Virus record (IMG/VR): IMGVR_UViG_3300050821_004478
Length of the DNA: 64,000 nucleotides
Strand: one strand, 5' to 3'
Source: a virus
Below are positions 5,491 through 63,411 of the stretch, piece after piece (positions within the stretch are counted from its first letter, which is position 1; every line of letters starts with the position of its first letter). The notes under the pieces are model-generated. The model did not search any database. It was not told the origin of the DNA and saw only the letters and a program-made list of their open reading frames with translations. The position numbers and the translations under genes were made by a program.

Positions 5491-5670
5491 GTGACAAGGA
5501 ATAACAATGACAGTGCTCAATAAAATCATGTGCTTCTTTTTTGAACACGATGATGTGCCAGAAAATATACAAACACTCTTTACCGACAACGGCGGCTGGC
5601 ATGATGTTGTTTATTCCTGGCGCTGCACGGTATGTAATCGACTCAGAGAATTTGAACGATAAGGAGGATT

Positions 5671-6180
5671 ATGGCGGACTTCAATCAGGCGGTGCAGAAG
5701 ACTTTAATCAACGAGGGCGGTTTCCAAAACATCCACGGCGACAGCGGCAACTGGACCGGGGGCGAGGTCGGCAAGGGCGAACTGAGGGGCACGAAATATG
5801 GTATCAGCGCCGCCGAATTCCCCAACCTCGACATCTTCAATCTGACCCAAGATCAGGCCATCCAGATTTACCGGGAAGGCTATTGGAAGGATGGTTACTC
5901 TCAGATCACTGATCAATTGCTGGCTGACAAACTATTCGACCTGGGTGTTCTCTTCGGCGTCGGGGAGGCCGTGAAGCTGCTACAAATCACAATGGCCAAC
6001 AAGATCAGCTTAGTCACCGATGGTGAGTTTGGTCTCGGCACGCTATCGGCGGTGAACCAGTCCGCAAATCTGCTGCCCGCTTACAAGACCACGTTCATCA
6101 ATCACTGCATGAATATCATCAACCACAATCCGGCGAAGGCACAGTTCGCGAATAATTGGGTACGTAGGATTAATTCGTGA
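5671..6180 (+). CDS. Endolysin, GH108 lysozyme-like domain plus PG_binding_3-like C-terminus
   Basis: Motifs LINEGGFQN, GDSGNWTGGE..GTKYGIS, and a C-terminal DGEFGLGT. TAAGGAGG RBS. Confidence 0.8.
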   Translation: MADFNQAVQKTLINEGGFQNIHGDSGNWTGGEVGKGELRGTKYGISAAEFPNLDIFNLTQDQAIQIYREGYWKDGYSQITDQLLADKLFDLGVLFGVGEAVKLLQITMANKISLVTDGEFGLGTLSAVNQSANLLPAYKTTFINHCMNIINHNPAKAQFANNWVRRINS

Positions 6181-6572
6181 TAACGATGGGCCGACATTGG
6201 ATGAGCGCGTTGGTCTCGTGGATTCCTGGGTTGAAGCATCCCGCTACTCCCAAGATAATCTATATGAACTGCTATGAGTACGACCGGGTCCGCCGCGCCA
6301 TAACCGGACGATGCAAAATCTGCAACTTTGTTGTCACCCGGGACGAGAAGGCCGTTCGAGAGTTAGTCTTTAAATGCGGAGATACATCCTGCGACTGTCA
6401 GAGGACGGGACTTAGCAGGCCACATCCAGTTTGTCATCTGTGTTACGACATGTTCCATGCACTGTATGCGAACTATACGATGGTGAATCGGAATTATTTC
6501 AAAGAGTTAGACGATCAGGATAAAGCAAATTCCGGCGACAACCCGGAGAAACGCAGGAGGATGGGCTTATGA
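6177..6572 (+). CDS. Cys-rich hypothetical protein (putative zinc-binding)
   Basis: GTGA overlap with the endolysin stop. Multiple CxxC / CxC pairs. Confidence 0.5.
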   Translation: MITMGRHWMSALVSWIPGLKHPATPKIIYMNCYEYDRVRRAITGRCKICNFVVTRDEKAVRELVFKCGDTSCDCQRTGLSRPHPVCHLCYDMFHALYANYTMVNRNYFKELDDQDKANSGDNPEKRRRMGL

Positions 6573-42289: not shown

Positions 42290-42386
42290 TTTACACCTTT
42301 GAGGTTGGCAAAACATCTTCAACCGCCCTGTACAGGCCCGGGGTCAGGCAGATTGTGTCAAGTTTTATTGCTAAAAAACTTGACAT

Positions 42387-43073
42387 CTATTGTCCGAGAA
42401 CTTCCTGATCTTCAAGGCTAGAGTAACATTTGCCGTTACGCTTTTCCCAAAGAGAGCGGAAATATCTTGCGGAGATTGCATTGGGTGATGGTACCCCAAA
42501 AATTTTGTGGCACTGTACTTCTGTGATGATCTCTTTCTCGACAAGTTGGATTGCTACCGTGCGCCAACCGCGCGACTCTTCCCCATCGGGAATGCCGTGG
42601 CTGTCTAGTTTCAGTACGCTCCACTCCCACATTGAGGGAACATCCATGAAACAGACTGCGCGTAATTTCTTAGATTGACCTGGGGGAGAACACCATAGTC
42701 CAACGGTCGGGATTCCGCCGCGCCCTATCCAGCCAACGTCTGTGATAACGGTCTTCAACCCGTTCGCGTGCAACTTGTCGACGAAATTTCGGGTACTGAT
42801 CTTGTTGATCTGGCGGGCCGCTTTGTTAGTCAGGTCTTCCTGATCGTCCCACTTGTAGGCCGCTGCCATTCGGTTCGAGATGTCTTTCTCGGCGGCGAAC
42901 GATTCCTTCACGAACGACTTGTAGTCGTTGGGCCACTTGACCCAATTCGGAGTGCCGTCCGCCAACATCTGGCGAATGGCTTGATGCGTCGCATCTACAT
43001 CGTGGTGCTCATTGAATGGATTCTCAACGTCGGGGCCTTTGATGAAAGGCTGGTCCGGAGTTTGGATGGTCAT
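42387..43073 (-). CDS. hypothetical protein
   Basis: 228-aa ORF immediately downstream of the GIY-YIG gene. Confidence 0.5.
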   Translation of the reverse strand: MTIQTPDQPFIKGPDVENPFNEHHDVDATHQAIRQMLADGTPNWVKWPNDYKSFVKESFAAEKDISNRMAAAYKWDDQEDLTNKAARQINKISTRNFVDKLHANGLKTVITDVGWIGRGGIPTVGLWCSPPGQSKKLRAVCFMDVPSMWEWSVLKLDSHGIPDGEESRGWRTVAIQLVEKEIITEVQCHKIFGVPSPNAISARYFRSLWEKRNGKCYSSLEDQEVLGQ

Positions 43074-43087
43074 TGGTATTGTCCTTT

Positions 43088-43684
43088 TTATTGTGCTGCT
43101 CGACGACGCTGCTGTGATGCTCTCATCTTCTGCTTCGTTTCTTCTGATGCCTTCTTGCCTTTGTGGGAATCGGACATTCGCTGGCGCGCTTCGTCAGTAC
43201 GTTTTGCGCCGACATGAACGGCCATCAGTTTCTGAAAATTGTCTTCGGACATCTTCCTACCGAGAGCGTATTTGTTACCCATGCTACGCTGAGATAACTT
43301 CTGTCGATGGCTCTCTGGCATCACCAGTCCGATACGAGACGCGGACATCTTGGCGCGGGTTTCTTTGCTCATCTTAACTCCCAGAGAGCCGTTCCCGCCG
43401 TGCGTAATGTTATACCCCTTCTTGGGGTCCGTGGTGTCCCATGATTTAATCAAGCCAATTTCGTACAGGTCCATCTCTTGCTTTGTTCCGACAATAACAA
43501 GAGGCTTCACCTCAAATCCGTCAGCGCCGTACTTTCGAATCGCGCGATAGAGAAGGCGCTTACCTTGATAGCCCGTTTCGGCTAACCAAACATTCCTGCG
43601 CCAATAGGACTCCAAATCTATACCGGCGTGTTGTCCAACGTATTTCTTGCCGTTCTTCTTGTTTGTAATCAAATAGACTATCAT
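43088..43684 (-). CDS. GIY-YIG homing endonuclease (I-TevI-like, NUMOD3-type repeats)
   Basis: Motif VYLITNKKNGKKYVGQ. Repeated ...E(T/A)R.KMS.S..G modules. Confidence 0.8.
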   Translation of the reverse strand: MIVYLITNKKNGKKYVGQHAGIDLESYWRRNVWLAETGYQGKRLLYRAIRKYGADGFEVKPLVIVGTKQEMDLYEIGLIKSWDTTDPKKGYNITHGGNGSLGVKMSKETRAKMSASRIGLVMPESHRQKLSQRSMGNKYALGRKMSEDNFQKLMAVHVGAKRTDEARQRMSDSHKGKKASEETKQKMRASQQRRRAAQ

Positions 43685-43742
43685 TTACTCTCCATGAAAG
43701 AGTGATTGAGGGGTGTGTTCATGGCACACCCCATCAATCTTA

Positions 43743-43771
43743 ACCTTAACGCGCGTTGCAACGCTTGTCAA
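43743..43771 (-). promoter_or_regulatory. sigma70-like promoter (TTGACA-N17-TAAGGT) with GTTGCAAC palindrome in spacer
   Basis: Minus strand reads TTGACA agcGTTGCAACgcgcgt TAAGGT, upstream of the GIY-YIG gene. Confidence 0.5.
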
Positions 43772-43774
43772 GGG

Positions 43775-44005
43775 AAAAGTTTTCACTCGTTACTGAATAG
43801 CAGGCCACTTGTTACCGCTTTCGCGGGGCCGGTCATTTCTGCCGACCTCTTACAGTTTTGTTTCCTGTAAGAGCAGACTATCGCATCGCCCCGAAGGGCG
43901 TTCGCTCGCTTAGTCGTTCACGGTGCCTTTCGGCTTCCGCCTTGTTAGCATTTCAGCTTCCAAGTCAATCAGAGCAAATTATCTACTAGCAGATTACGCT
44001 GCTAG
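43775..44005 (-). ncRNA. group I intron-like ribozyme core, copy A
   Basis: On the minus strand: P2 CTAGCAG/CTGCTAG; P3 TTGCTC/GAGCGA; R-like element GUGAACGACUAAGCGAG (43905-43921); P8 CGCCC-UUCG-GGGCG; S-like element GAUGCGAUAGUCUGCUC (43871-43887); three further hairpins. Confidence 0.6.
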
Positions 44006-44069
44006 GAGTCCATATTGAACGCTATCAATGTAACGAATACGCTGCGTGTTGACGCCAGTTGCGGGCGGC

Positions 44070-44312
44070 AAAGTCACGGTTTGGTGAAACTTGTAACTGC
44101 ACCCAATCTTGTTAACACTTTCGTGTACCGAATCATTTCTGTTCGGTTCATACGGTTTGTTTCCCGTATGTTCAGACTATTGCATCGACCTATTGTCAGA
44201 AGGTCGTTTTCTCGCTTAGTCGTTCACGGTGCCTTTCGGCTTCCGCCTCGTTGCCGTTTCAGGTTTCGAGTCAATCAGAGAAAATTTACTGTGGCCTATG
44301 CTGTTAAGCCAC
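44070..44312 (-). ncRNA. group I intron-like ribozyme core, copy B (overlaps 3' end of capsid ORF)
   Basis: On the minus strand: P2 GTGGC/GCCAC, containing the capsid stop codon; P3 TTTCTC/GAGAAA; an identical 37-nt core including the R element (44211-44227); S-like element GAUGCAAUAGUCUGAAC (44170-44186). All stems covary with copy A. Confidence 0.6.
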
Positions 44313-45231
44313 CGATGGTAGATACGGGGTCGAAGCTCGATGCCGGTGCGTCTGTGACCACTCGACAATCGATTGTCTTCCAATCGCCGTCATCGAGGTC
44401 TGTGTCGCCCGGGACCTGAAGCCACACACCGATCATCGCGTAATTGCCGAAGACGTATGTGCGGTAGCCGATCTTGCCGGTGCCGCTGTAGTTAGCGGTG
44501 GTTGTGACGAACGGAGTCTGCATGAAGCCGATGTTGGTGCCCGGTAGAACAATGACCTTGTTCTGGTCGCTGCCTGCCATCGCATCAAACTTCTCCATGT
44601 TCTCGTACTTCCACAAATCCGCGATGCTGTTGTTCACAGTCGTGGCGTTGTAGATGTCGCCCAACACGTTGGGGCTGATTGCGCCTAGGAACATACCGCG
44701 CTTGCAAGGCAACACGTTCTTTGAAACAAGCTGCTGCTTCAATTCACGGATGGTGCCAAGGTCAAGCGTGAAAGGTGACGCCAGCAAGCTGCTCTGGTTA
44801 ACCTGTGAGTCCACGCCGGACGCGCTGTCAGCAACTGCGCTGTACAGTTCGCTGATCGATTGCCCAGCTTGGTAGCCGAGTTCGACTGCGCTGTTGCCGA
44901 CCAACTCGTCAATCGCCGCTGCAATCGCGAACGAAGAAAAGTTGGCATAGTTGTTCCACTCACCGATCTGAGCCGGTGAGCTAAGCTGGCTGATGACTTC
45001 CGGGTTGCCCACGGTGCCGTCAGAATTCTGGATGATGTCACCAGATAGCGTGTTGTACTGGAAAAACGTACGGTTCACGCCCATGTGGAGACCCTGCACG
45101 CGACGTTCAGCAGCGCCAACGAATGCGTTGGTGTTGCCCTTCAAGTTCGGGATGAGTTCCTTATCGAAGATGATCGCTTGCGCGGTTAATACGTTTGCTA
45201 CGTTTGACCCTGATGGGTTCGGACCACTCAT
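44296..45231 (-). CDS. major capsid protein candidate; 3' end may be interrupted by a group I intron
   Basis: 311-aa ORF directly after the scaffold-like gene in a portal-scaffold-capsid order. The stop codon lies inside the P2 hairpin of intron-like copy B. Confidence 0.6.
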   Translation of the reverse strand: MSGPNPSGSNVANVLTAQAIIFDKELIPNLKGNTNAFVGAAERRVQGLHMGVNRTFFQYNTLSGDIIQNSDGTVGNPEVISQLSSPAQIGEWNNYANFSSFAIAAAIDELVGNSAVELGYQAGQSISELYSAVADSASGVDSQVNQSSLLASPFTLDLGTIRELKQQLVSKNVLPCKRGMFLGAISPNVLGDIYNATTVNNSIADLWKYENMEKFDAMAGSDQNKVIVLPGTNIGFMQTPFVTTTANYSGTGKIGYRTYVFGNYAMIGVWLQVPGDTDLDDGDWKTIDCRVVTDAPASSFDPVSTIGGLTA

Positions 45232-45274
45232 GGTAGTTCTCAGTCACAAGATCAGCGCGACGCGCTGGTCGACC

Positions 45275-46597
45275 TTATCGAATCTGGATACCGTAGGCTT
45301 GAAGTTGTTTGACGAATTGAGGGTCCGTCTTCAACTTAGCTCTCATTACTTTCGGGTCCATATCCTTTACGGTCTTTAGGAATTCCTTCCTCGCGAGTGC
45401 TGGGTCTGGCGTTCCCGGTCGTTGTGCGCTCAACGAACCCGGAGGCAAGCCTCCATTCACTCCCGGACGACGGGCGGGTACTGGCACATTAGGTGCCGCC
45501 GCAGACGTCGCTACCGTTGCTTCAACCACAGGCTGACTAGGCACTGCTGGCTGGGCTGCTACTATAGGTACTGGCACTGCAATTGGCGTTTCCGCGACCG
45601 GGATTACCGGGGGAGCGGGCGTTGCTGCAGTGGCTGCTGGGACCGGATTAGGGACCACAACAGCTTGTCTCGTTGCCACGGTTTCCACCTTGGCAAGTTT
45701 GTCACCCTGTTCCAAAAGGTCCTGAAACGCGGCCTCAAGGTTATCATGGGTAAGTTCAAGATTGTTCTCTACAAAATAATCATTCATTGCCTTCTTATTG
45801 GCATCGCACGGGTTATAGTCATGCAAGTGATGACGCATCCACTGGTTTGAAATGGCGCGGCCCGTTTCGTAGGCTTCTTTGTTCTTCAGTTCAGTTTCAC
45901 GCTTCTGATAACTGCTCTCGATGGTGGCGTGAATCACATCGGTGATCTTTGATGAATCCTTTTCTTCCAAAGCAACGCGCGCTGCTTCCGCGATTGCCTC
46001 TGGGGACAAAATTGTTTTCTCTTGCTTGAATGACAACTTCTGCTGTTTCAAGCGATGAAATGCGCGGGTCGCCTGGACGTGGACTTCTCGCTTCTTCGCT
46101 GCGAGTTCAACCAACGTGCGCGCTTCCAAGTGCGTCGGACGACCGATGTTTTTACCATCTTCTCCGGTAACTTGGTATTCTTCAATGTAACGGGTCGCTT
46201 TGCCTTGCGCGTCACGAACGATTGTTACGCCTGCGGCCAACCACTCTGCATCTTCCGCTTCGTGATTGTTGACTACCGGAACTGCTTTCGGAATATCGTC
46301 AGTTGGCATATCAGCGGGCAGTGGCGCATTCATCGCTATCGCTTCTGCTGTTGCCGCTGCCATCTTTGCGGCCTCTGCTGCGAGTTCTTCTGTTGATGGG
46401 GGAATCACACGATTCAACTGCGCATCAACTGCCTCTTCTCGGTTCTGGGCCTCCAACATCAACTCAGATACACGAGATGCAACCACACGATCTCGAAGGA
46501 GTGACTGCATATCCTTGGACGTGGTTGGGTCTTTCACGGCTGCTAGAATGGACTTCAAATCCATCTGCAGCACAACTTCGCGAGTGATTGCACTCAT
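45275..46597 (-). CDS. scaffolding protein candidate
   Basis: 440 aa, acidic and Ala-rich, helical. Lies between the portal and capsid genes. Confidence 0.55.
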   Translation of the reverse strand: MSAITREVVLQMDLKSILAAVKDPTTSKDMQSLLRDRVVASRVSELMLEAQNREEAVDAQLNRVIPPSTEELAAEAAKMAAATAEAIAMNAPLPADMPTDDIPKAVPVVNNHEAEDAEWLAAGVTIVRDAQGKATRYIEEYQVTGEDGKNIGRPTHLEARTLVELAAKKREVHVQATRAFHRLKQQKLSFKQEKTILSPEAIAEAARVALEEKDSSKITDVIHATIESSYQKRETELKNKEAYETGRAISNQWMRHHLHDYNPCDANKKAMNDYFVENNLELTHDNLEAAFQDLLEQGDKLAKVETVATRQAVVVPNPVPAATAATPAPPVIPVAETPIAVPVPIVAAQPAVPSQPVVEATVATSAAAPNVPVPARRPGVNGGLPPGSLSAQRPGTPDPALARKEFLKTVKDMDPKVMRAKLKTDPQFVKQLQAYGIQIR

Positions 46598-57435: not shown

Positions 57436-57510
57436 TGGTTGCCTGATTTGGATTCGGACCAAAACTTCCGCTTTCAGAGAGCGGCGTGCTACCGGTTGCA
57501 CTATCTGGCA
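57436..57510 (-). tRNA. tRNA-Gln: tRNA-Gln (anticodon CUG)
   Basis: D arm GUGC/GCAC; anticodon arm CCGCU-CUCUGAA-AGCGG; T arm UUUGG-UCCGAAU-CCAAA; CCA encoded; one A-A mismatch in the acceptor. Confidence 0.8.
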
Positions 57511-57608
57511 ATTGAAATAAAAGTCGTCCCTACTAAGGCGATGGGGTCCTTTTCCTCCGAGGTCACATCGCGCTGCTTCCTCAAAGTACCAGACCGACGA
57601 CCCGAGAT
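57511..57608 (-). ncRNA. unassigned structured spacer between tRNAs (candidate processed stable RNA)
   Basis: 98 nt with no cloverleaf. Terminal pairing GGGUCGUC...GACGAC and an internal GAGG...CCUC hairpin. Confidence 0.25.
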
Positions 57609-57684
57609 TGGTTGCTCATGAAGGACTCGAACCTTCATCTTCGGATTCAAAGTCCGAGGTCCTCCCAATTAGACGAGAGAGCAA
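57609..57684 (-). tRNA. tRNA-Gln: tRNA-Gln (anticodon UUG)
   Basis: Anticodon arm UCGGA-CUUUGAA-UCCGA; T arm GAAGG-UUCGAGU-CCUUC; CCA encoded; 1-2 mismatches at the base of the acceptor. Confidence 0.75.
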
Positions 57685-57691
57685 TAGAAAC

Positions 57692-57765
57692 TGGTCCCGA
57701 GCCACCGAGTCGAGCGGTGTCTTCTCCGTCTTCAGCGGAGGGTGCAACCCTTACACCTGCAGGGG
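57692..57765 (-). tRNA. tRNA-Phe: tRNA-Phe (anticodon GAA), non-canonical
   Basis: Anticodon arm CUCCG-CUGAAGA-CGGAG; T arm CACCG-CUCGACU-CGGUG; acceptor CCCCUGC/GCUCGGG has two central mismatches; CCA encoded. Confidence 0.55.
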
Positions 57766-57766
57766 A

Positions 57767-57952
57767 TTAAATAAGTTCAATAGTAAATGCGTGTGGGTTT
57801 GAGAACTCACCATACTTACAGGTGACTTTCAGTTTTCCCAAATCAAACTGTGTGAACGTAAACTCATGAGGCAGCAAGTTATGAGAAATGAATTGTTGTT
57901 TCAGTTCTCGAATCAATGAGACGTCGATTTTATCTGCCTGCTCTTGAGTCAT
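57767..57952 (-). CDS. small hypothetical protein (61 aa)
   Basis: Start trimmed to the MTQEQ ATG with a GAAGGA RBS. The longer ORF would run through tRNA-Ser. Confidence 0.45.
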   Translation of the reverse strand: MTQEQADKIDVSLIRELKQQFISHNLLPHEFTFTQFDLGKLKVTCKYGEFSNPHAFTIELI

Positions 57953-57967
57953 TGTTGTTCCTTCAAA

Positions 57968-58054
57968 TGGCGGAGAGCCAAGGAGTCGAACCCTGTCACG
58001 CGTGAGCGTGTCTCTGTTTTCAAGACAGTTAAGCACCGTTGCTAGCTGCCCTCC
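57968..58054 (-). tRNA. tRNA-Ser: tRNA-Ser (anticodon UGA), type II
   Basis: Acceptor GGAGGGC/GCUCUCC; anticodon loop CUUGAAA; long variable arm CACGC-UCAC-GCGUG; T loop UUCGACU; CCA encoded. Confidence 0.85.
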
Positions 58055-58197
58055 GTAAAATTTGCCCGTTACAGATGAGTCCTCCTCGTGAAGGTCATCA
58101 CCCTAAGCTCCCACGGGTCCGAGGCATGATCGCGTCGCCCGGGTAACGTCCTTCTAGTCCGGCAGCACCACGCGATGGAACAACATCAAGATTAAAT
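58055..58197 (-). ncRNA. unassigned structured spacer between tRNAs (candidate processed stable RNA)
   Basis: 143 nt with no cloverleaf and no ORF. Contains a 7-bp helix AUCGCGU...ACGCGAU. Confidence 0.3.
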
Positions 58198-58283
58198 TGG
58201 CGGAACGAGAAGGAGTCGAACCTTCACGACCTCTCGGTCGCAAGTTTAGCAAACTTGTCCGGCTACCGTTTCGGCACCGTTCC
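58198..58283 (-). tRNA. tRNA-Ser: tRNA-Ser (anticodon GCU), type II
   Basis: Acceptor GGAACGG/UCGUUCC; anticodon arm CAAGU-UUGCUAA-ACUUG; variable arm CGACC-GAGA-GGUCG; CCA encoded. Confidence 0.85.
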
Positions 58284-58284
58284 A

Positions 58285-58332
58285 TGTCAACTTATAGATT
58301 GACAAATAACTCTCGTTTGTCAACTTATAGAT
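58285..58332. repeat. 15-bp direct repeat TGTCAACTTATAGAT x2 (period 33) between tRNA genes
   Basis: Exact copies at 58285-58299 and 58318-58332. Confidence 0.8.
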
Positions 58333-58343
58333 GTACAAAATTT

Positions 58344-58420
58344 TGGCGGGAAGCGACGGACTCGAACCGCCACCCTTCGGGTTGGAGCCGAAGATGCTGC
58401 CACTAACACTTGCGACCCGC
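58344..58420 (-). tRNA. tRNA-Trp: tRNA-Trp-like (anticodon CCA) with aberrant acceptor/T geometry
   Basis: Anticodon arm CUUCGG-CUCCAAC-CCGAAG; T arm GGCGG-UUCGAGU-CCGUC. The 5' strand GCGGGUCGC pairs with the 3' strand GCUUCCCGC only with two internal mismatches. Confidence 0.5.
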
Positions 58421-58426
58421 TGAAAC

Positions 58427-58514
58427 TGGTGGATAGTGAACGACTCGAACGTTCGAAGCCCACATGGGGCGCGTGTTTTACAGACACGAGCAATTGCCGC
58501 TATGCGAACCATCC
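58427..58514 (-). tRNA. tRNA-Tyr: tRNA-Tyr (anticodon GUA), type II
   Basis: Acceptor GGAUGGU/ACUAUCC; anticodon arm CGUGU-CUGUAAA-ACACG; long variable arm; T arm GAACG-UUCGAGU-CGUUC; CCA encoded. Confidence 0.85.
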
Positions 58515-58522
58515 ATGAAACT

Positions 58523-58596
58523 TGGAGCACCACAACTGAATCGAACAGTTGCCTCTGCCTTACGAAGGAAGTGTCCTGCCACTGGACCAGCAGTGC
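58523..58596 (-). tRNA. tRNA-Thr: tRNA-Thr (anticodon CGU)
   Basis: D arm GUCC/GGAC; anticodon loop UUCGUAA; T arm AACUG-UUCGAUU-CAGUU; CCA encoded. Confidence 0.8.
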
Positions 58597-58604
58597 TCAA
58601 AACT

Positions 58605-58844
58605 TTACTTTACGTGCGCGCGAAACCATGCTGCTAGACGCGCTGGCCACCATGAGGGCGGCTGCGGCGGCTTCTGCTTTGCAATTGGCGTGTTGAGCAT
58701 TCCGTTGTAGGAAGGCATAAGCACGCTGCCGTCGTCGTAATAGATCGGACCATTCACGGCTTTGTCGCCGTACTTGAATGAGCCTGCGGGAAACGGATTG
58801 CTCTGGCTACCGTCTGGTACTGGCACTACTGGCGTTGTTGCCAT
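58605..58844 (-). CDS. small hypothetical protein (79 aa)
   Basis: Start trimmed to the MATTPV ATG with an AGGAGA RBS. The longer ORF would run through tRNA genes. Confidence 0.45.
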   Translation of the reverse strand: MATTPVVPVPDGSQSNPFPAGSFKYGDKAVNGPIYYDDGSVLMPSYNGMLNTPIAKQKPPQPPSWWPARLAAWFRAHVK

Positions 58845-58860
58845 GCGTTCTCCTAAAAGT

Positions 58861-58935
58861 TGGAGCGAGATACCAGAATCGAACTGGTGCCTAAACCTTG
58901 GCAAGGTCTCGTACAAACCACTATACGAATCCCGC
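58861..58935 (-). tRNA. tRNA-Gly: tRNA-Gly (anticodon GCC)
   Basis: Acceptor GCGGGAU/AUCUCGC; anticodon loop UUGCCAA; T arm ACCAG-UUCGAUU-CUGGU; CCA encoded. Confidence 0.85.
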
Positions 58936-58942
58936 TTAAAAT

Positions 58943-59018
58943 TGGAGCAAAGTGATGGATTCGAACCACCGTGTCGAAGGTACAAGCTTCGCATACTAGG
59001 CCGCTGTATGAACCATGC
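58943..59018 (-). tRNA. tRNA-Thr: tRNA-Thr (anticodon UGU)
   Basis: Anticodon arm CGAAG-CUUGUAC-CUUCG; T arm GGUGG-UUCGAAU-CCAUC; CCA encoded; U4-U69 mismatch. Confidence 0.8.
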
Positions 59019-59020
59019 TC

Positions 59021-59094
59021 TGGAGCCAAGACGTGGAATCGGACCACGGCCTCCTCCTTACCAAGGAGGAATTCTGCCACTAGACTATCTAGGC
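59021..59094 (-). tRNA. tRNA-Thr: tRNA-Thr (anticodon GGU)
   Basis: Anticodon arm CCUCC-UUGGUAA-GGAGG; T arm CGUGG-UCCGAUU-CCACG; CCA encoded; U4-U69 mismatch. Confidence 0.8.
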
Positions 59095-59103
59095 TCAAAA
59101 CTT

Positions 59104-59451
59104 TTACTTCAAAGAAATCTTTGATGCCTTCAGCTTCAGAAAATTTCTGATAACCTGAATGCCTTCGACAACGGAGACGCCAGCTAGGAATGCATATCCT
59201 GCGCCGAGGTTATGAGCCGCGATTACCGCTCCGACGCCCAGGACCGCTACCGCGCTAAGGAACGCGCTCAACGACTGGCCAATCTTTGCAAAAAGAAACT
59301 TCATGACCGGGTTGCCTTCCACAAAGCCGTGCTGCAGACCGATCATGGTGGTGTAAGCATCACCCAACACCGCGACGAGACTTGTAAAACTTAGTGCAGC
59401 CAAGAGAACCGTCTGTCCTGCTGTCCATGTGCCTACTGGAGGTGTGAACAT
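59104..59451 (-). CDS. membrane protein (DUF5658-like, ...GFVEGNP... motif)
   Basis: Start trimmed to the MFTPPV ATG. Four hydrophobic helices. The longer ORF would run through tRNA-Gly. Confidence 0.5.
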   Translation of the reverse strand: MFTPPVGTWTAGQTVLLAALSFTSLVAVLGDAYTTMIGLQHGFVEGNPVMKFLFAKIGQSLSAFLSAVAVLGVGAVIAAHNLGAGYAFLAGVSVVEGIQVIRNFLKLKASKISLK

Positions 59452-59466
59452 TAATTCTCCTAAAAA

Positions 59467-59540
59467 TGGAGCGAACTGCGAGACTCGAACTCGCTTCTCC
59501 GGCTTGGAAGACCAGGGCACAACCTATATGCCAAGCTCGC
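59467..59540 (-). tRNA. tRNA-Gly: tRNA-Gly (anticodon UCC)
   Basis: Acceptor GCGAGCU/AGUUCGC; anticodon loop CUUCCAA; T arm GCGAG-UUCGAGU-CUCGC; CCA encoded. Confidence 0.85.
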
Positions 59541-59548
59541 TCAGAAAT

Positions 59549-59635
59549 TGGTTGCAGGGGCCAGATTCGAACTGGCGGTGTGCTTTCGCATCGGGCTTAT
59601 GAGACCCGCGACATCGGCCACTAGTCGACCCTACA
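59549..59635 (-). tRNA. 87-nt type II (long variable arm) tRNA with CAU anticodon
   Basis: Acceptor UGUAGGG/CCCUGCA; A73; 11-nt D loop; anticodon arm CGGGU-CUCAUAA-GCCCG; about 15-nt variable arm containing UGC-GAAA-GCA; T arm GCCAG-UUCGAAU-CUGGC; CCA encoded. Confidence 0.7.
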
Positions 59636-59699
59636 ACTGAAACTTTATTTGCTCATCACCCAGATCACATACACGACTGAGATGATGACGCCCAGAACG

Positions 59700-59942
59700 T
59701 TACAGACTGTTCGCGTCAGCGCCATTTTCTGATCTAAGCTGAGCGACATTCTTTTCGTCCTTTTTCTTGTTGCGACCGTCATACCACTTTCGTCGCAATC
59801 CCAAATATTCGAGTTGAGCCTTCAGACTCTCCTCCGCTGCGACTCGCATCGCACGATCATCTTTCCAGATGCTGATTAGAAAGTATAAGGCTACTAAGTC
59901 GACCGCCAGTGCTGCAACCGAGGCTGCGTCTGCTATCGTCAT
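59700..59942 (-). CDS. small membrane-anchored protein
   Basis: 80 aa with an N-terminal TM helix followed by a charged helix. Confidence 0.45.
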   Translation of the reverse strand: MTIADAASVAALAVDLVALYFLISIWKDDRAMRVAAEESLKAQLEYLGLRRKWYDGRNKKKDEKNVAQLRSENGADANSL

Positions 59943-59964
59943 AGATCACCGATCAGGACGAAAA

Positions 59965-60040
59965 TGGTTCCCCAGGTTGGATTCGGACCAACGACCCCTT
60001 GCTTATCAGGCGAGTGCTCTAGCCACTGAGCTACCGGGAA
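59965..60040 (-). tRNA. tRNA-Ile: tRNA-Ile (anticodon GAU)
   Basis: D arm UAGCUCAGUGGCUAGAGC; anticodon loop CUGAUAA; T arm GUUGG-UCCGAAU-CCAAC; CCA encoded. Confidence 0.85.
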
Positions 60041-60048
60041 ATTGAAAC

Positions 60049-60363
60049 TTATTTACGTTGAAGTCTTGCGTACCAAAGAAGCTGATGTTGATAGTCTTCT
60101 TCAGCGGTGCAGAAACTCCAAGGCCAAAACTTTTCGAGTGTCGGGGGGAACTGCAACGTCTGCTTCCCGTCGCGACCCCAAGACCACACATCGTTGAAAC
60201 TTGCTTCCAGGCGTTTCGGGATGACTAGTTCTTCCCAATCTTTGCAATCCCTGATTGCCTGCTCTTGCGCCCGACGCCAGCAGCGGCGAGCAACCATCTT
60301 GTCGTGCGCCGCTGATCTCACGCCTGTGATGGCAGAGTACGGCTTGCGATAACTTTTTGACAT
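60049..60363 (-). CDS. hypothetical protein
   Basis: 104-aa ORF between tRNA genes. Confidence 0.5.
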   Translation of the reverse strand: MSKSYRKPYSAITGVRSAAHDKMVARRCWRRAQEQAIRDCKDWEELVIPKRLEASFNDVWSWGRDGKQTLQFPPTLEKFWPWSFCTAEEDYQHQLLWYARLQRK

Positions 60364-60413
60364 TGAAACCTCCGTAGGTTTACCTAATACATGTCATGTT
60401 ATCTCCTTAAAAT

Positions 60414-60486
60414 TGGTGGACCGATGGGGAGTCGAACCCCTTTTTCTCGGTGCAAGCGAGACGTATACCCGTCCTACTCTCAGCCC
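60414..60486 (-). tRNA. tRNA-Ala: tRNA-Ala (anticodon UGC)
   Basis: Acceptor GGGCUGA/UCGGUCC with G3-U70; anticodon arm UCUCG-CUUGCAC-CGAGA; CCA encoded. Confidence 0.8.
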
Positions 60487-60492
60487 ATAAAG

Positions 60493-60567
60493 TGGTAGCG
60501 TAGCAGAGACTCGAACTCTGTCTTCGTGCTTGAAAGGCACGATGCCTAACCCATAGCAGACTGCGCC
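60493..60567 (-). tRNA. tRNA-Glu: tRNA-Glu (anticodon UUC)
   Basis: Anticodon arm CGUGC-CUUUCAA-GCACG; T arm CAGAG-UUCGAGU-CUCUG; CCA encoded; C5-A68 mismatch. Confidence 0.8.
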
Positions 60568-60576
60568 ACTGAAAAT

Positions 60577-60663
60577 TTATTCGCCCTTCGGTGCCTTGAA
60601 GAACCAAGCAGCGAGCAGAAGCACAAACAGTGTGCCTCCGATGATCTCAAATATGACTGTCAT
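60577..60663 (-). CDS. possible 28-aa membrane peptide
   Basis: Translation MTVIFEIIGGTLFVLLLAAWFFKAPKGE. Weak RBS. Below the ORF-track cutoff. Confidence 0.3.
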   Translation of the reverse strand: MTVIFEIIGGTLFVLLLAAWFFKAPKGE

Positions 60664-60671
60664 CTCTATTC

Positions 60672-60875
60672 CTATTGCACAATCACTATCGGTGCCGGAA
60701 GTCTGAATGGCTTCCCCAACAGCGCCCCGTGTGGTCCTACTTTCATGAAGAGATCAGCGGAGCCATCCTTGTAAACATACAAGTGCCAACCGCGCGCTCT
60801 CTTATAATTTAGAACCGGATAGACATACGTGCCGTCTCCTTGTTCTTCAATCTCGATACAGTGATTTGCGATCAT
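60672..60875 (-). CDS. hypothetical protein
   Basis: 67-aa ORF. Confidence 0.45.
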   Translation of the reverse strand: MIANHCIEIEEQGDGTYVYPVLNYKRARGWHLYVYKDGSADLFMKVGPHGALLGKPFRLPAPIVIVQ

Positions 60876-60925
60876 AATGTTCTCCGTTGCTCAACGAGCA
60901 TATTATTCTACGGTGCTTCGAACTT

Positions 60926-61001
60926 TGGTAGCGTCGACGGGATTCTAACCCGTGTGGCCTGATTGAGAATCAGGAATCCTAGAACACTAGATGACATCGC
61001 C
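60926..61001 (-). tRNA. tRNA-Glu: tRNA-Glu (anticodon CUC)
   Basis: Anticodon arm CCUGA-UUCUCAA-UCAGG; T arm ACGGG-UUAGAAU-CCCGU; CCA encoded; A5-A68 mismatch. Confidence 0.75.
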
Positions 61002-61139
61002 ACAGAAATCGGTCTTCCTCATCGGCGCGTCCCAGCCGAATCGCCCGAGGGCTAGCCTCGTGCCTTTCTCACGCGCGATACTCAGCACGCCTCGCCCTTA
61101 GTGGACGTCTCACACGGTAGATGCCCGTGATCGGAAGTT
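61002..61139 (-). ncRNA. unassigned structured spacer between tRNAs (candidate processed stable RNA)
   Basis: 138 nt. Closing helix CUUCC...GGAAG, nested helices CGAGG[CGUGC...GCACG]...CCUCG, and hairpin CACGG-GCAUCUA-CCGUG. Confidence 0.3.
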
Positions 61140-61225
61140 TGGTGCGCTAGGTGGGAGTCGGACCCACAATCCCTTTCGGGCCGGGGGTTTTAAGTCCCCT
61201 GCGTATGCCATTCCGCCACACGCGC
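61140..61225 (-). tRNA. tRNA-Leu: tRNA-Leu (anticodon UAA), type II
   Basis: D arm GCGG..CGC; anticodon loop CUUAAAA; variable arm GGCCC-GAAA-GGGAU; A73; CCA encoded; two acceptor mismatches. Confidence 0.7.
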
Positions 61226-61230
61226 AAAGA

Positions 61231-61305
61231 TGGTGCCTCGTGATGGAATCGGACCATCGTCTCGACTTTATAAGAATCGGGCCTTCGCCATTAGACGAAC
61301 GAGGA
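61231..61305 (-). tRNA. tRNA-Ile: tRNA-Ile (anticodon UAU)
   Basis: Anticodon arm CGAUU-CUUAUAA-AGUCG; T arm GAUGG-UCCGAUU-CCAUC; CCA encoded; U1-C72 mismatch. Confidence 0.7.
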
Positions 61306-61314
61306 ACTGAAAAT

Positions 61315-61390
61315 TGGTACGAAGCAGAGGAATCGAACCTCTCTAGCCAGTGTGTAGGACTGGTGCATAGTGCCTATCTGCCAGCCTCGT
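61315..61390 (-). tRNA. tRNA-Val: tRNA-Val (anticodon UAC)
   Basis: Acceptor ACGAGGC/GCUUCGU; anticodon arm CCAGU-CCUACAC-ACUGG (C at position 33); T arm AGAGG-UUCGAUU-CCUCU; CCA encoded. Confidence 0.75.
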
Positions 61391-61397
61391 ATTGAAC

Positions 61398-61817
61398 CTA
61401 CCTATCCAATCGGAGTTCTTTGCAATAATGCTGTAGTCCAGTCCAACGTCCTTTGTCGACATTGAAGTTTCCGATTGGTTCAAACTTTTTGTGACCGACA
61501 CACCATGACATGCCTTCTGGCGCAATTTTTCTTTTAGATACCCCACCATGATAAATATGCTGACGGTTGCAATCCAAATGAGAGAATGCGACGTTGTCCA
61601 TATCCCAGAACAACTCGGCAGAGCGACCTTCCCACGGTCTGACGTGCTCTATGCTCAGTTCATCCACCGTCTCGATTTCTTTTTCACATCGAGCACATAT
61701 ATTGTCTCGGTACTTTTTCAATTGCCTGAATAGAACCATCTTACGAAGTCTATTCATCGCGGTGCCTTGTGGCATCCCGAGAGTCTCGATGACTCTCTGT
61801 GTTCTTGCGTTTGACAT
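61398..61817 (-). CDS. HNH homing endonuclease (paralogue of 63419-63799)
   Basis: Motif ...CARCEKEI...LSIEHVRPW...NVAFSHLDCN. Confidence 0.7.
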   Translation of the reverse strand: MSNARTQRVIETLGMPQGTAMNRLRKMVLFRQLKKYRDNICARCEKEIETVDELSIEHVRPWEGRSAELFWDMDNVAFSHLDCNRQHIYHGGVSKRKIAPEGMSWCVGHKKFEPIGNFNVDKGRWTGLQHYCKELRLDR

Positions 61818-61858
61818 AGTCGTTAGCCTCTGGCTGTAGATTTATGTGTTTGTAAAAT

Positions 61859-61934
61859 TGGTGCATCGCTCCAGGCTCGAACTGGAACTCCGTCGCTTAA
61901 AAGGCGAGTACGCTGCCGCTCGCGTCCGCAATGC
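61859..61934 (-). tRNA. tRNA-Lys: tRNA-Lys (anticodon UUU)
   Basis: Acceptor GCAUUGC/GCGAUGC; anticodon loop CUUUUAA; T arm UCCAG-UUCGAGC-CUGGA; CCA encoded. Confidence 0.8.
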
Positions 61935-61944
61935 ACAGAAAATT

Positions 61945-62019
61945 TGGTGGACTCGGTGGGATTCGAACCCACACCAAATCGGTTAAGAGCCGAGTATGCA
62001 ACCGTAACACCTCGGGTCC
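61945..62019 (-). tRNA. tRNA-Lys: tRNA-Lys (anticodon CUU)
   Basis: Acceptor GGACCCG/CGAGUCC; anticodon loop CUCUUAA; T arm GUGGG-UUCGAAU-CCCAC; CCA encoded. Confidence 0.8.
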
Positions 62020-62026
62020 ACTGTAG

Positions 62027-62353
62027 TTTTGGTGACGCTATAATCAGGATTCTGTCGAGGACGAACATTCCTCTCAAGTCGCTTTCGCGAAGCACGCTAC
62101 CCGCTCGTCATCCCGCTCAACAAGCGGTCAGAGCCTATTTGCGCTTGCACGAGTGTGGAGTTCGCTGACTCGAATGGCTCTTAAAGGCACCTTAACTGAG
62201 TTAGTGTGCTCTCAAGGGCACCAGCCCTTACCCGAACGCTTACGCGCCCCGCATCTTCCACGGCACTCTGTTGAGACGTGTCCTGAATTTCCTCGACGCG
62301 CCTTGGAGTATTTCACCGAGGGCTTACCGCCGCGTTCGTCTACGCTACCAAAA
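62027..62353 (-). ncRNA. rnpB: RNase P RNA (bacterial type A-like, reduced)
   Basis: On the minus strand: P1 UUUUGGU/ACCAAAA; P2 GACGAAC/GUUCGUC; P4 5' strand GAGGAAAUUCAGGA with a bulged U, pairing with the 3' strand ACAGAAUCCUGAUUA. Conserved blocks GGGUAAGGG, AACUCCAC..GCAAGCGCAAAUAGG and CGACAGAA occur in the canonical order. Confidence 0.8.
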
Positions 62354-62458
62354 TCTTCGGCATAGTTTTTCGTTAACCGCGCCGCGCCAAAACGATTCGA
62401 CTTGTCTACTTCGATTGCCGCGCGCTGGGCGAGACCTCGTGAATAGGGCCGACAAACT

Positions 62459-62532
62459 TGGAGCGCGAAGTGTGAATCGAACACACGATGGGTGTTTTGC
62501 AGACACCTAACTTACCACTTGTCGATTCGCGC
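62459..62532 (-). tRNA. tRNA-Cys: tRNA-Cys (anticodon GCA)
   Basis: Acceptor GCGCGAA/UUCGCGC; anticodon arm GGUGU-CUGCAAA-ACACC; T arm GUGUG-UUCGAUU-CACAC; CCA encoded. Confidence 0.9.
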
Positions 62533-62577
62533 AAACTTGACAATCAAGGTCTTAACCTTGACAAAACTGGTCGCTCA

Positions 62578-62664
62578 CCAGAGAGTCGAACTCTGACGCC
62601 CTTTCGGGCGGCGGGTTTTGAATCCGCTGCGTCTGCCGGTTCCGCCAGCAAGCGAATATTTACT
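62578..62664 (-). tRNA. tRNA-Leu: tRNA-Leu (anticodon CAA), type II
   Basis: Acceptor CGCUUGC/GUGAGCG; D arm GCGG..CGC; anticodon loop UUCAAAA; variable arm CGCCC-GAAA-GGGCG; A73; CCA encoded. Confidence 0.85.
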
Positions 62665-62705
62665 CGTGCTGTAAATATGGCACGAGGATTAAATTTGGAA
62701 GGCCA

Positions 62706-62780
62706 CCGGAGAGTCTAACTCCGCTCTGGACGTTCGTAGCGTCCCGTCGTGTACGATGGACTAGCAGCCCTCTGAAAATT
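62706..62780 (-). tRNA. tRNA-Arg: tRNA-Arg (anticodon ACG)
   Basis: Anticodon arm GGACG-CUACGAA-CGUCC; T arm CGGAG-UUAGACU-CUCCG; acceptor contains several G-U pairs; D loop lacks GG; CCA encoded. Confidence 0.7.
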
Positions 62781-62855
62781 GAATTCCCCGTTGCGCGGAA
62801 CAACGCGTCTCGCAACCTTTAAGTGCCGACGTTGCGCCCACGGCACGGAAAAAAT

Positions 62856-62930
62856 TGGAAGGCCCGGGGAGAATTCAACTCCCATAGTCGCCTTAGAAGT
62901 GCGACGTCCTGTGCATTGAACGACAGGCCC
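62856..62930 (-). tRNA. tRNA-Arg: tRNA-Arg (anticodon UCU)
   Basis: Acceptor GGGCCUG/CGGGCCU; anticodon loop CUUCUAA; T arm GGGAG-UUGAAUU-CUCCC; CCA encoded. Confidence 0.75.
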
Positions 62931-62937
62931 ACAAAAT

Positions 62938-63022
62938 TGGTTGCCCCTGAGAGACTTGAACTCTCAATCCCTTCCGGGCGCTTGTTTCTAAGACAAGTGC
63001 GTATTCGTTCCGCCAAGAGGCA
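62938..63022 (-). tRNA. tRNA-Leu: tRNA-Leu (anticodon UAG), type II
   Basis: Anticodon arm CUUGU-CUUAGAA-ACAAG; variable arm CCC-GGAA-GGG; T arm GAGAG-UUCAAGU-CUCUC; A73; CCA encoded. Confidence 0.85.
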
Positions 63023-63252
63023 ATAGAAATCCGAGGAGCTACTTATCAACGCGCGGCCCCCGGACGCGCTTTGGGTCCCTGTTTACAGAGACCGAGAGTG
63101 CATGCCCCTTACCAGTCGACGAGGCCACGCGCGCGGGAGCTACCCGGCTGTGTTTGACTCTCTGTTGTACAACATCGTTCCCCTGCCTGCCTCCGTTGCT
63201 TAGCCTCTTAGTTGAGGCCAGCTAACACAGTGGTGCCGTTCGAGGAAAGTTT
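63023..63252 (-). ncRNA. unassigned ~230-nt structured RNA candidate with RNase P S-domain-like motifs
   Basis: The minus strand contains ACAACAGAGAGUCAAAC, a GC-rich hairpin region, UGGUAAGGGG, and UCUCUGUAAAC. No cloverleaf and no ORF. Confidence 0.35.
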
Positions 63253-63327
63253 TGGCAGAGATAACGGGAATCGGACCCGTACTTTTTCCGTGACAGGGAA
63301 ACGTCGTTACCAACTGACCCTATCTCT
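63253..63327 (-). tRNA. tRNA-Asp: tRNA-Asp (anticodon GUC)
   Basis: Anticodon arm UUUCC-CUGUCAC-GGAAA; T arm ACGGG-UCCGAUU-CCCGU; G73; CCA encoded. Confidence 0.85.
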
Positions 63328-63335
63328 GCAGAAAT

Positions 63336-63411
63336 TGGCTCCATCCCTCCGACTCGAACGGAGACCCTCCTCATTAACAGTGAGGTGTCCTACCAATTGG
63401 ACCAGAATGGA
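63336..63411 (-). tRNA. tRNA-Asn: tRNA-Asn (anticodon GUU)
   Basis: Acceptor UCCAUUC/GGAUGGA; D arm GUCC/GGAC; anticodon arm CCUCA-CUGUUAA-UGAGG; T arm CUCCG-UUCGAGU-CGGAG; CCA encoded. Confidence 0.9.

Follow-up and report, generated by a model that had tools for sequence, protein, structure and literature searches.

A phage capsid gene probably split into three exons by two small group I introns, next to a free-standing GIY-YIG endonuclease gene

Results

The capsid gene and its two interruptions

We analysed a 64,000-nucleotide (nt) stretch of viral DNA, IMG/VR record IMGVR_UViG_3300050821_004478, here called the window, whose minus strand carries a putative major capsid gene, two small RNA elements and a gene for a GIY-YIG homing endonuclease. 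The capsid open reading frame (ORF), as called in the ORF listing, runs from 45231 to 44296 (minus strand) and encodes 311 residues (aa) with the C-terminus ...STIGGLTA. An initial annotation, made from the letters of the window, had placed both RNA elements between this ORF and the endonuclease gene; in fact they interrupt the capsid gene, and the TAG stop codon of the 311-aa ORF (44298..44296) is the fourth codon, in frame, of the first element. We conclude, with a probability of about 0.88, that the capsid gene consists of three exons split by two small, ORF-less, self-splicing group I introns of one family, which are arranged as follows:

44307..45231, minus strand: capsid exon 1, codons 1-308 and the first base, T, of Trp309 (from the ORF listing, the splice reconstruction and the 341-aa homologues)
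44104..44306, minus strand: intron 1, 203 nt without an ORF, inserted at nt 925 of the coding sequence (CDS); its removal restores the frame
44018..44103, minus strand: capsid exon 2, 86 nt, encoding (W)CSYKFHQTVTLPPATGVNTQRIRYIDSV
43805..44017, minus strand: intron 2, 213 nt without an ORF, at CDS nt 1011, with 12 nt of coding sequence left ahead of the stop codon
43790..43804, minus strand: capsid exon 3, CCT GCT ATT CAG TAA, encoding PAIQ and the stop codon

Joining the three exons gives a CDS of 1026 nt and a protein of 341 aa. The alignment with intron-less homologues, which the initial annotation had proposed as a check, bears this reconstruction out: the full 341 aa are restored, and the last 33 residues, with the tail GGWCSYKFHQTVTLPPATGVNTQRIRYIDSVPAIQ, match the intron-less homologue P0003 at every position. 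The closest homologues in the protein collection (74-96% identity) are mostly 341 aa long and end in ...STIGGWCSYKFHQTVTLPPATGVNTQRIRYIDSVPAIQ, while a minority stop at 308-321 aa, and uninterrupted capsid alleles are present in many related contigs. Exons 1 and 2 meet within the invariant Trp309 codon, whose first base belongs to exon 1 (T^GG, where the caret marks the splice site, as below).

The 30 C-terminal residues missing from the 311-aa product include 19 positions that are invariant across the homologues. When exons 2 and 3 are compared with 14 uninterrupted alleles, 11-35 of 99 nt are changed, with just 0-6 residue changes; the allele of locus L014 differs at 26 nt and at no residue. 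Few residue changes against many nucleotide changes indicate purifying selection and thus expression of these exons. Purifying selection is acting on exons 2 and 3, a coding sequence that is readable only after splicing. A group II intron, an intein and recoding were considered and rejected, because the insert has a group I core, is non-coding at the RNA level with stops in all frames, and has the U/G boundaries described below.

The gene follows a portal gene and a gene of 440 aa, with conserved synteny. Aligned over 99% of its length, its product is 36.6% identical to gp6, the 'major head protein' of Tunturiibacter phage Tunturi_3, a 97.6-kb podovirus of Acidobacteriota (PMC11924767), and TIGR04387 (N4-gp56 family major capsid protein) matches 25 of 41 clade members below its threshold. 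No match to the protein was found in Pfam or PHROGs, and the only matches from a profile search of PDB sequences, to kinesins, were discarded as spurious. Looking up the exact sequence of the 311-aa product gave no record.

Fold and covariation of the inserted RNAs

The initial annotation had reported an identical core of 37 nt in both elements. This core, GGCGGAAGCCGAAAGGCACCGTGAACGACTAAGCGAG, occurs exactly twice, at 44247..44211 and 43941..43905 (minus strand), where none is expected (100 shuffles). The S-like strings, helices P3, P4, P8, P9 and P9.1 and the hairpin with a GAAA loop are likewise all present as they had been written, and the helices are recovered by folding. The minimum-free-energy folds give P3 or P7, P4, P5, P6/6a, P8, P9, P9.1 and P9.2, with z-scores of -4.0 for intron 1 and -4.5 for intron 2. 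The catalytic centres, assigned by pattern match and covariation, lie at:

44175..44221, minus strand: intron 1, P7 5' strand GACUA (44221..44217), P3 3' strand, P8, J8/7 and P7 3' strand UAGUC (44179..44175)
43876..43915, minus strand: intron 2, P7 5' strand GACUA (43915..43911), P3 3' strand, P8 and P7 3' strand UAGUC (43880..43876)

A covariance model of the family scores intron 2 at 176 bits and intron 1 at 170 bits, and the next best match in the 64-kb window at 6.5 bits.

We examined covariation in two sets of sequences, using a structure that includes the P3/P7 pseudoknot. In the capsid-gene set, a MAFFT alignment of 23 copies (A2) that was fitted to no structure, 95.9% of the cells are paired, and shifting the partners by 1-3 columns lowers this to 34-41%. 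Of the 43 pairs, 30 show compensatory changes; P3 is 100% paired, with all six of its pairs covarying. The independent set comprises 48 copies found by the core covariance model in 100 contigs from genome bins of very diverse bacteria and archaea in GTDB, and here 96.1% of the cells are paired, with covariation in 37 of 40 pairs. In these copies P7, absent from the search model, is 99.6% paired. Covariation supports the P3/P7 pseudoknot, the P4-P6 domain, P8, P9 and P9.1.

The G-C pair of P7 beside a one-nucleotide bulge is invariant in both sets (23/23 capsid-gene and 47/47 independent sequences), and the pair beyond the bulge alternates between A-U (27) and G-C (20) in the independent set. 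These are the features of a guanosine-binding site, which we predict at this position. Both window introns retain every position that is invariant in the family and all of the helices. Three unpaired segments are also nearly invariant (alignments A2 and A7), namely UGAUUGA in J3/4, the nine-nt L9.1 loop CAGAAAUGA and a 3' tail, GUAACAA, which lies a few nt ahead of the terminal G of the family introns. These segments probably make tertiary contacts.

Splice sites and guide pairing

The exon-intron boundaries are defined by the following helices:

44291..44312, minus strand: P1 of intron 1, in which exon GUGGCU^U (44312..44306) pairs with the guide AGGCCAC (44297..44291), with a U.G wobble at the splice site; the span also contains the in-frame TAG stop (44298..44296)
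44008..44020, minus strand: P1 of intron 2, in which GUU^CA (44020..44016) pairs with UGGAC (44012..44008); the splice-site pair is a U.G wobble
43986..44005, minus strand: P2 of intron 2, in which CUAGCAG (44005..43999) pairs with CUGCUAG (43992..43986); P1 and P2 together form the unit 43986..44020

The initial annotation had presented two helices as the P2 of the respective elements. CUAGCAG/CUGCUAG is indeed the P2 of intron 2, and GUGGC/GCCAC is instead the P1 of intron 1 and holds its 5' splice site. A terminator scan flagged this same P1 hairpin as terminator-like, which is an artefact.

Both window introns have U at position -1, paired to an intron G, and a terminal G. The boundary of intron 1 is unique; intron 2 has two equivalent placements, just one of which gives U at -1 together with a terminal G. 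Boundaries with U at -1 and a 3' G are possible for all 24 family introns extracted from the capsid gene, and every one of these introns has a P1 in which this U forms a wobble pair with a G of the guide, which is complementary to the intron's own exon. The native guide pairs with a mean of 5 nt of its own exon and with 1.6 nt of the exons at other insertion sites. The exon at site 925 shows a synonymous change, GGC to GGA, for which a G-to-U change in the guide compensates. The intron of L079, at site 931, has the P1 GCU^C/GGGC next to the same P2 as intron 2, which shows that the guide sequence tracks the insertion site.

The neighbouring endonuclease gene

The second gene of the locus begins 105 nt past the capsid stop codon:

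43088..43684, minus strand: free-standing GIY-YIG/NUMOD3 homing endonuclease gene, 198 aa

Its product matches TIGR01453, 'group I intron endonuclease', with 70.6 bits against a cut-off of 56, the homing endonuclease family PHROG 314 with an expectation value (E) of 1e-34, and Pfam NUMOD3 with E = 1.2e-8; the match to Pfam GIY-YIG (E = 2.6e-4) falls short of its cut-off. The claim of the initial annotation that two group I intron cores are associated with a capsid gene and a GIY-YIG gene holds. It had also called the endonuclease gene promoter-equipped, and this is not borne out by a consensus scan, which found no sigma-70-like promoter in 42300..45400, a region that includes the sequence upstream of the endonuclease gene. 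At 43700..43760 (minus strand), GGGGUGUG-CCAUGAA-CACACCCC forms a perfect 8-bp hairpin. It precedes the ribosome-binding site (GGAGAG) and start codon of the endonuclease gene by about 20 nt and could regulate translation of the endonuclease or serve to process read-through capsid transcripts.

Of 68 informative loci, 17 have the endonuclease gene in the same place, more precisely 9 of the 18 that have introns in the 3' part of the capsid gene and 8 of the 50 that do not (odds ratio 5.25, Fisher p = 0.009, a test that ignores relatedness). The locus has the arrangement on which collaborative homing is based, that is, ORF-less introns (203 and 213 nt) adjoining a stand-alone endonuclease gene, and a role of the latter in moving the introns may be presumed.

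Distribution of the intron family

We scanned viral contigs with the spliced capsid protein and obtained 80 loci, most with an uninterrupted gene. In about 30 of the 80, members of the same RNA family, 165-240 nt in length, are inserted at no fewer than ten sites in the capsid gene (at least CDS nt 62, 89, 917, 925, 931, 934, 941, 945, 1001 and 1011), six of which fall within 29 nt (CDS nt 917-945). The site of intron 1, nt 925, is also occupied in L025, L028, L081 and L093, and that of intron 2, nt 1011, in L076, whose orthologue has a core identity of 0.89. L081 has introns at both window sites in a gene whose protein is 79% identical to that of the window. L093, with a capsid homologue that is 69.5% identical, has family introns at three positions (CDS nt 812, 925 and about 1014). 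This last locus (5639..6508) belongs to contig CAVXJY010000090.1 of a Bryobacterales metagenome-assembled genome, 209 kb in length and binned as Acidobacteriota, which hints at a prophage or at the host phylum.

Near-identical cores are also found at different sites with different guides, for instance in L051 (site 945) and L081 (site 925), and in L071 (site 934) and L073 (site 89), with core identities of 0.88 in each case. Larger inserts of 776-813 nt with the same intron core occupy the nt-89 site in L054 (3222..3999), L026 and L027 (3184..3996) and L070 (1706..2481). Those of L054 and L026 include an internal ORF of 190-223 aa for an HNH/Endo VII-like endonuclease, upstream of P3, and L026 and L027 have a second, ORF-less intron at nt 62.

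The family extends beyond this capsid gene. Megablast of the region against GenBank phages gave no match, and a sensitive blastn search with intron 2 gave a single one, to the P22-like podovirus MW202674.1 (16569..18084, L203), in whose annotation the coat gene appears as two CDS on either side of a 'hypothetical protein'. A full-length family intron (83.9 bits, E = 7.6e-18) lies in this gap, from which we conclude that this P22-type coat gene is an unrecognised split gene. In addition, the P7/J8-7 signature GACTAA-N18-34-GATGCRATAGTC occurs in at least 120 GTDB contigs from very diverse bacteria and archaea (L082-L201), and the family model has 48 matches in the first 100 of these. Flanking ORFs that could be named encode major head proteins (L157, L195), a P22-like portal protein (L155), NrdD (L088) and a GIY-YIG endonuclease (L170). 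A flanking ORF in L141 is a candidate LAGLIDADG-like endonuclease, as judged by eye.

Elsewhere in the window, 20 tRNA genes are packed into 6 kb (57439..63411, minus strand), compared to just 3 tRNAs reported for the related phage isolate Tunturi 3 (PMC11924767).

Discussion

We infer catalysis and the target of the endonuclease as follows. Each intron would fold in the late transcript into P3-P8 and P4-P6 stacks linked by the P3/P7 pseudoknot. Free guanosine would dock at the invariant P7 G-C pair beside the bulge and attack after the exon U that is wobble-paired to the guide G in P1; the terminal G of the intron would next occupy the same site, and the exons would be ligated. Two such splicing reactions would produce the mRNA for the full 341-aa capsid protein. 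The early in-frame stops, at the fourth codon of intron 1 and the eighth of intron 2, would keep ribosomes out of the ribozyme core, and an unspliced message would yield a protein short of the 30 conserved C-terminal residues. The GIY-YIG gene would be a separate mobile gene, whose product most likely cuts nearby capsid alleles that are free of the endonuclease gene, and repair of the double-strand break would co-convert the endonuclease gene and the adjoining introns (trans or 'collaborative' homing).

Several observations weigh against this interpretation. Splicing itself is something that we infer from the sequence, and the major capsid identity is predicted from homology, namely the Tunturi_3 match, the sub-threshold TIGR04387 matches and synteny; two AlphaFold runs on the capsid protein gave a mean predicted local distance difference test (pLDDT) score of 29.6 and 34.5, which makes the models unusable. 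The P1 of intron 2 has just three exon pairs, some family boundaries were picked among equivalent alignments to fit the U/G rule, and the third intron of L093 obeys this rule only if one extra protein residue is allowed. The link between endonuclease and introns is weak, with exceptions both ways: L009 has the endonuclease gene (81% identical) next to an intron-less capsid gene, and half of the intron-bearing loci have no endonuclease gene. The Rfam model Intron_gpI (RF00028) has no match in 43600..44500 (901 nt) even at E <= 10, and gives the 3' half of the T4 td intron 40.3 bits (E-value mode) against a cut-off of 50. Finally, the family covariance model does not match T4 td or nrdB significantly (td: 7.3 bits, E = 1.4), so that no model ties the family to a group I intron proven by biochemistry.

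The Rfam result has to be read with its controls. At the gathering score, the whole window gives tRNAs only and no Intron_gpI, and RF00028 matches none of 19 other genomic loci that have the same P7 signature. The initial annotation had named the lack of such a match as grounds for refutation; there is indeed no match, yet this does not amount to a valid refutation but to weak evidence, since the same search misses the experimentally established td and nrdB introns of T4 at the gathering score. We assign both elements to group I from the defining structural features, all of which are present, and not from a model match to a proven intron.

The elements could also be, one or both, dead intron relics or structured RNA of the 3' untranslated region, with the capsid built from the 311-aa product, or with a defective genome. 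The 311-aa ORF is complete with its own stop codon, which would fit such a reading, as would the silence of Rfam and the inferred nature of splicing. Nevertheless, we regard it as very improbable, given that the window encodes the missing residues exactly, in frame and in two pieces, that 19 of these 30 residues are at invariant positions, and that the split-off pieces are under purifying selection, as the comparison with L014 illustrates. Both introns, moreover, retain all invariant positions of the family and its helices, and for each of them an orthologue occupies the same site in a divergent phage. The initial annotation had weighed two introns, a duplication, and an intron with a decayed copy; the kept invariant positions argue against decay, and the same-site identities against a recent duplication, which leaves two introns. 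Core identity is 0.89 between intron 2 and the L076 intron and 0.80 between intron 1 and those of L025 and L028, compared to 0.73 between the two window introns, and the same two sites also hold introns in L081 and L093, with capsid proteins just 69-79% identical to that of the window. A recent tandem duplication, or gene conversion between neighbours, in place of two independent acquisitions is thus unlikely, even if the 37-nt core is identical in both introns. This 37-mer is also the commonest variant family-wide, so that constraint can account for its presence in both copies, as could gene conversion. In L076 (4933..5457), both co-resident introns have the unusual P4 variant CUUGG/ACAGG, which the same-site orthologues of the first of them lack; this hints at gene conversion between neighbouring introns there.

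The introns might also spread alone, by guide-directed reverse splicing, in which case the GIY-YIG gene would be an unrelated selfish insertion. The near-identical cores of L051/L081 and L071/L073, which lie at different sites with wholly different P1 helices and guides, are what this would produce, and the intron loci that lack the endonuclease gene, together with the endonuclease loci that lack an intron, point the same way. Against it, introns and endonuclease genes co-occur above chance (again with relatedness ignored), all scorable loci with a site-945 intron that reach the next gene carry the endonuclease gene, except L062, and homing in trans by a free-standing endonuclease has been demonstrated for mobE/I-TevIII in T4 (PMC2790892) and in cyanophage S-PM2 (PMC3984707). 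We consider spread by reverse splicing alone doubtful, if a serious possibility, and favor two introns mobilized with the help of the adjoining endonuclease.

A broader hypothesis, which we put forward as speculative and more probably wrong than right, is that the family represents a compact group I lineage of about 200 nt, missed by the Rfam model, that favors phage head genes (N4-gp56-like capsid, P22-type coat, other major head proteins and portal). It would move within a gene by swapping the P1/P2 targeting module on a near-identical core; the 29-nt cluster of sites would mark the recognition site of the GIY-YIG endonuclease, and the introns would hitch-hike on its breaks and shield their carrier.

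These introns have consequences for annotation. Gene callers cut the capsid gene of the window to 311 aa, and about 30 of the 80 related contigs, as well as MW202674, have similarly broken capsid genes because the introns are not recognised and Rfam is silent. The clade also offers a natural series of alleles with 0, 1, 2 or 3 introns, with and without an internal endonuclease ORF, and with a variable neighbouring endonuclease gene, which makes these phages good material for studying how ORF-less introns reach new sites.

Among known introns, the window introns resemble T4 td, of subgroup IA2, the commonest viral group I subtype (PMC11835236), at the catalytic centre. The shared sequence that the initial annotation had named, AUAGUCUGCUCU, is confirmed from the T4 record and is located in the downstream copy, intron 2. 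The P7 strands AACGACUA and AUAGUCUGCUCU are common to td and the window introns, and the catalytic centre of intron 1 has the same AACGACUA ... AUAGUCUG. In both systems, P7 consists of A, a bulged C and GACUA, paired with UAGUC-U, AUAGUCUGCUCU runs on into P9, and three 3' hairpins follow P7. The window introns differ in having no ORF in P6 and no P7.1/P7.2, the extra hairpins of IA2, between P3' and P8: just 1-2 nt separate P3' from a lone hairpin (P8), beyond which come J8/7 and P7'. Neither the Rfam nor the family model joins the two significantly.

An ORF-less intron next to a free-standing endonuclease gene is known from the psbA intron of S-PM2 with F-CphI (PMC3984707) and the nrdB intron of T4 with MobE (PMC2790892). 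Here too, ORF-less introns in a conserved phage gene adjoin a stand-alone endonuclease gene, and both are variably present. The differences are that there are two introns, that the endonuclease is of the GIY-YIG and not of the Endo VII-like or HNH type, and that the host gene encodes a capsid protein; collaboration is presumed. Capsid genes are themselves known hosts of group I introns, in lactococcal phage Tuc2009 and mycobacteriophage LittleE (PMC3706429). As in these phages, the introns of the window lie in the most highly expressed late gene and are recognised through intron-less relatives and the rule of U(-1) and a 3' G. LittleE has a single intron with an endonuclease ORF (PMC3706429), whereas in the window the N4-gp56-like capsid gene, from a soil phage clade, has two introns that lack an ORF; 86 nt separate them, and just 12 nt lie between the second and the stop codon.

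A parallel in size and number is found in the Jug jumbo phages of the gut, which have many group I introns of about 206 nt, several per gene, along with stand-alone endonucleases; these introns were found with subtype covariance models, and splicing of 37 of 76 was confirmed by metatranscriptome reads (PMC12880540). In crAss-like phages, genes are also split by self-splicing introns and inteins (PMC12880540). The window shares with the Jug phages the size class of about 200 nt, several introns per gene, essential genes that are fragmented in annotation and stand-alone GIY-YIG/HNH genes, and differs in its lineage, which comprises relatives of the Acidobacteriota podovirus Tunturi 3. The initial annotation had called the tandem cores unusual, which overstates the case, as multiple small introns in one phage gene with stand-alone endonucleases are well documented (PMC12880540). 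The basic phenomenon is already well known and is common in phages, and the window is a clear but fairly ordinary example of it. Mildly notable are the ten or more insertion sites in one gene, of which six fall within 29 nt, the near-identical cores with different guide modules, and the occurrence in unrelated head genes of a family that is invisible to Rfam.

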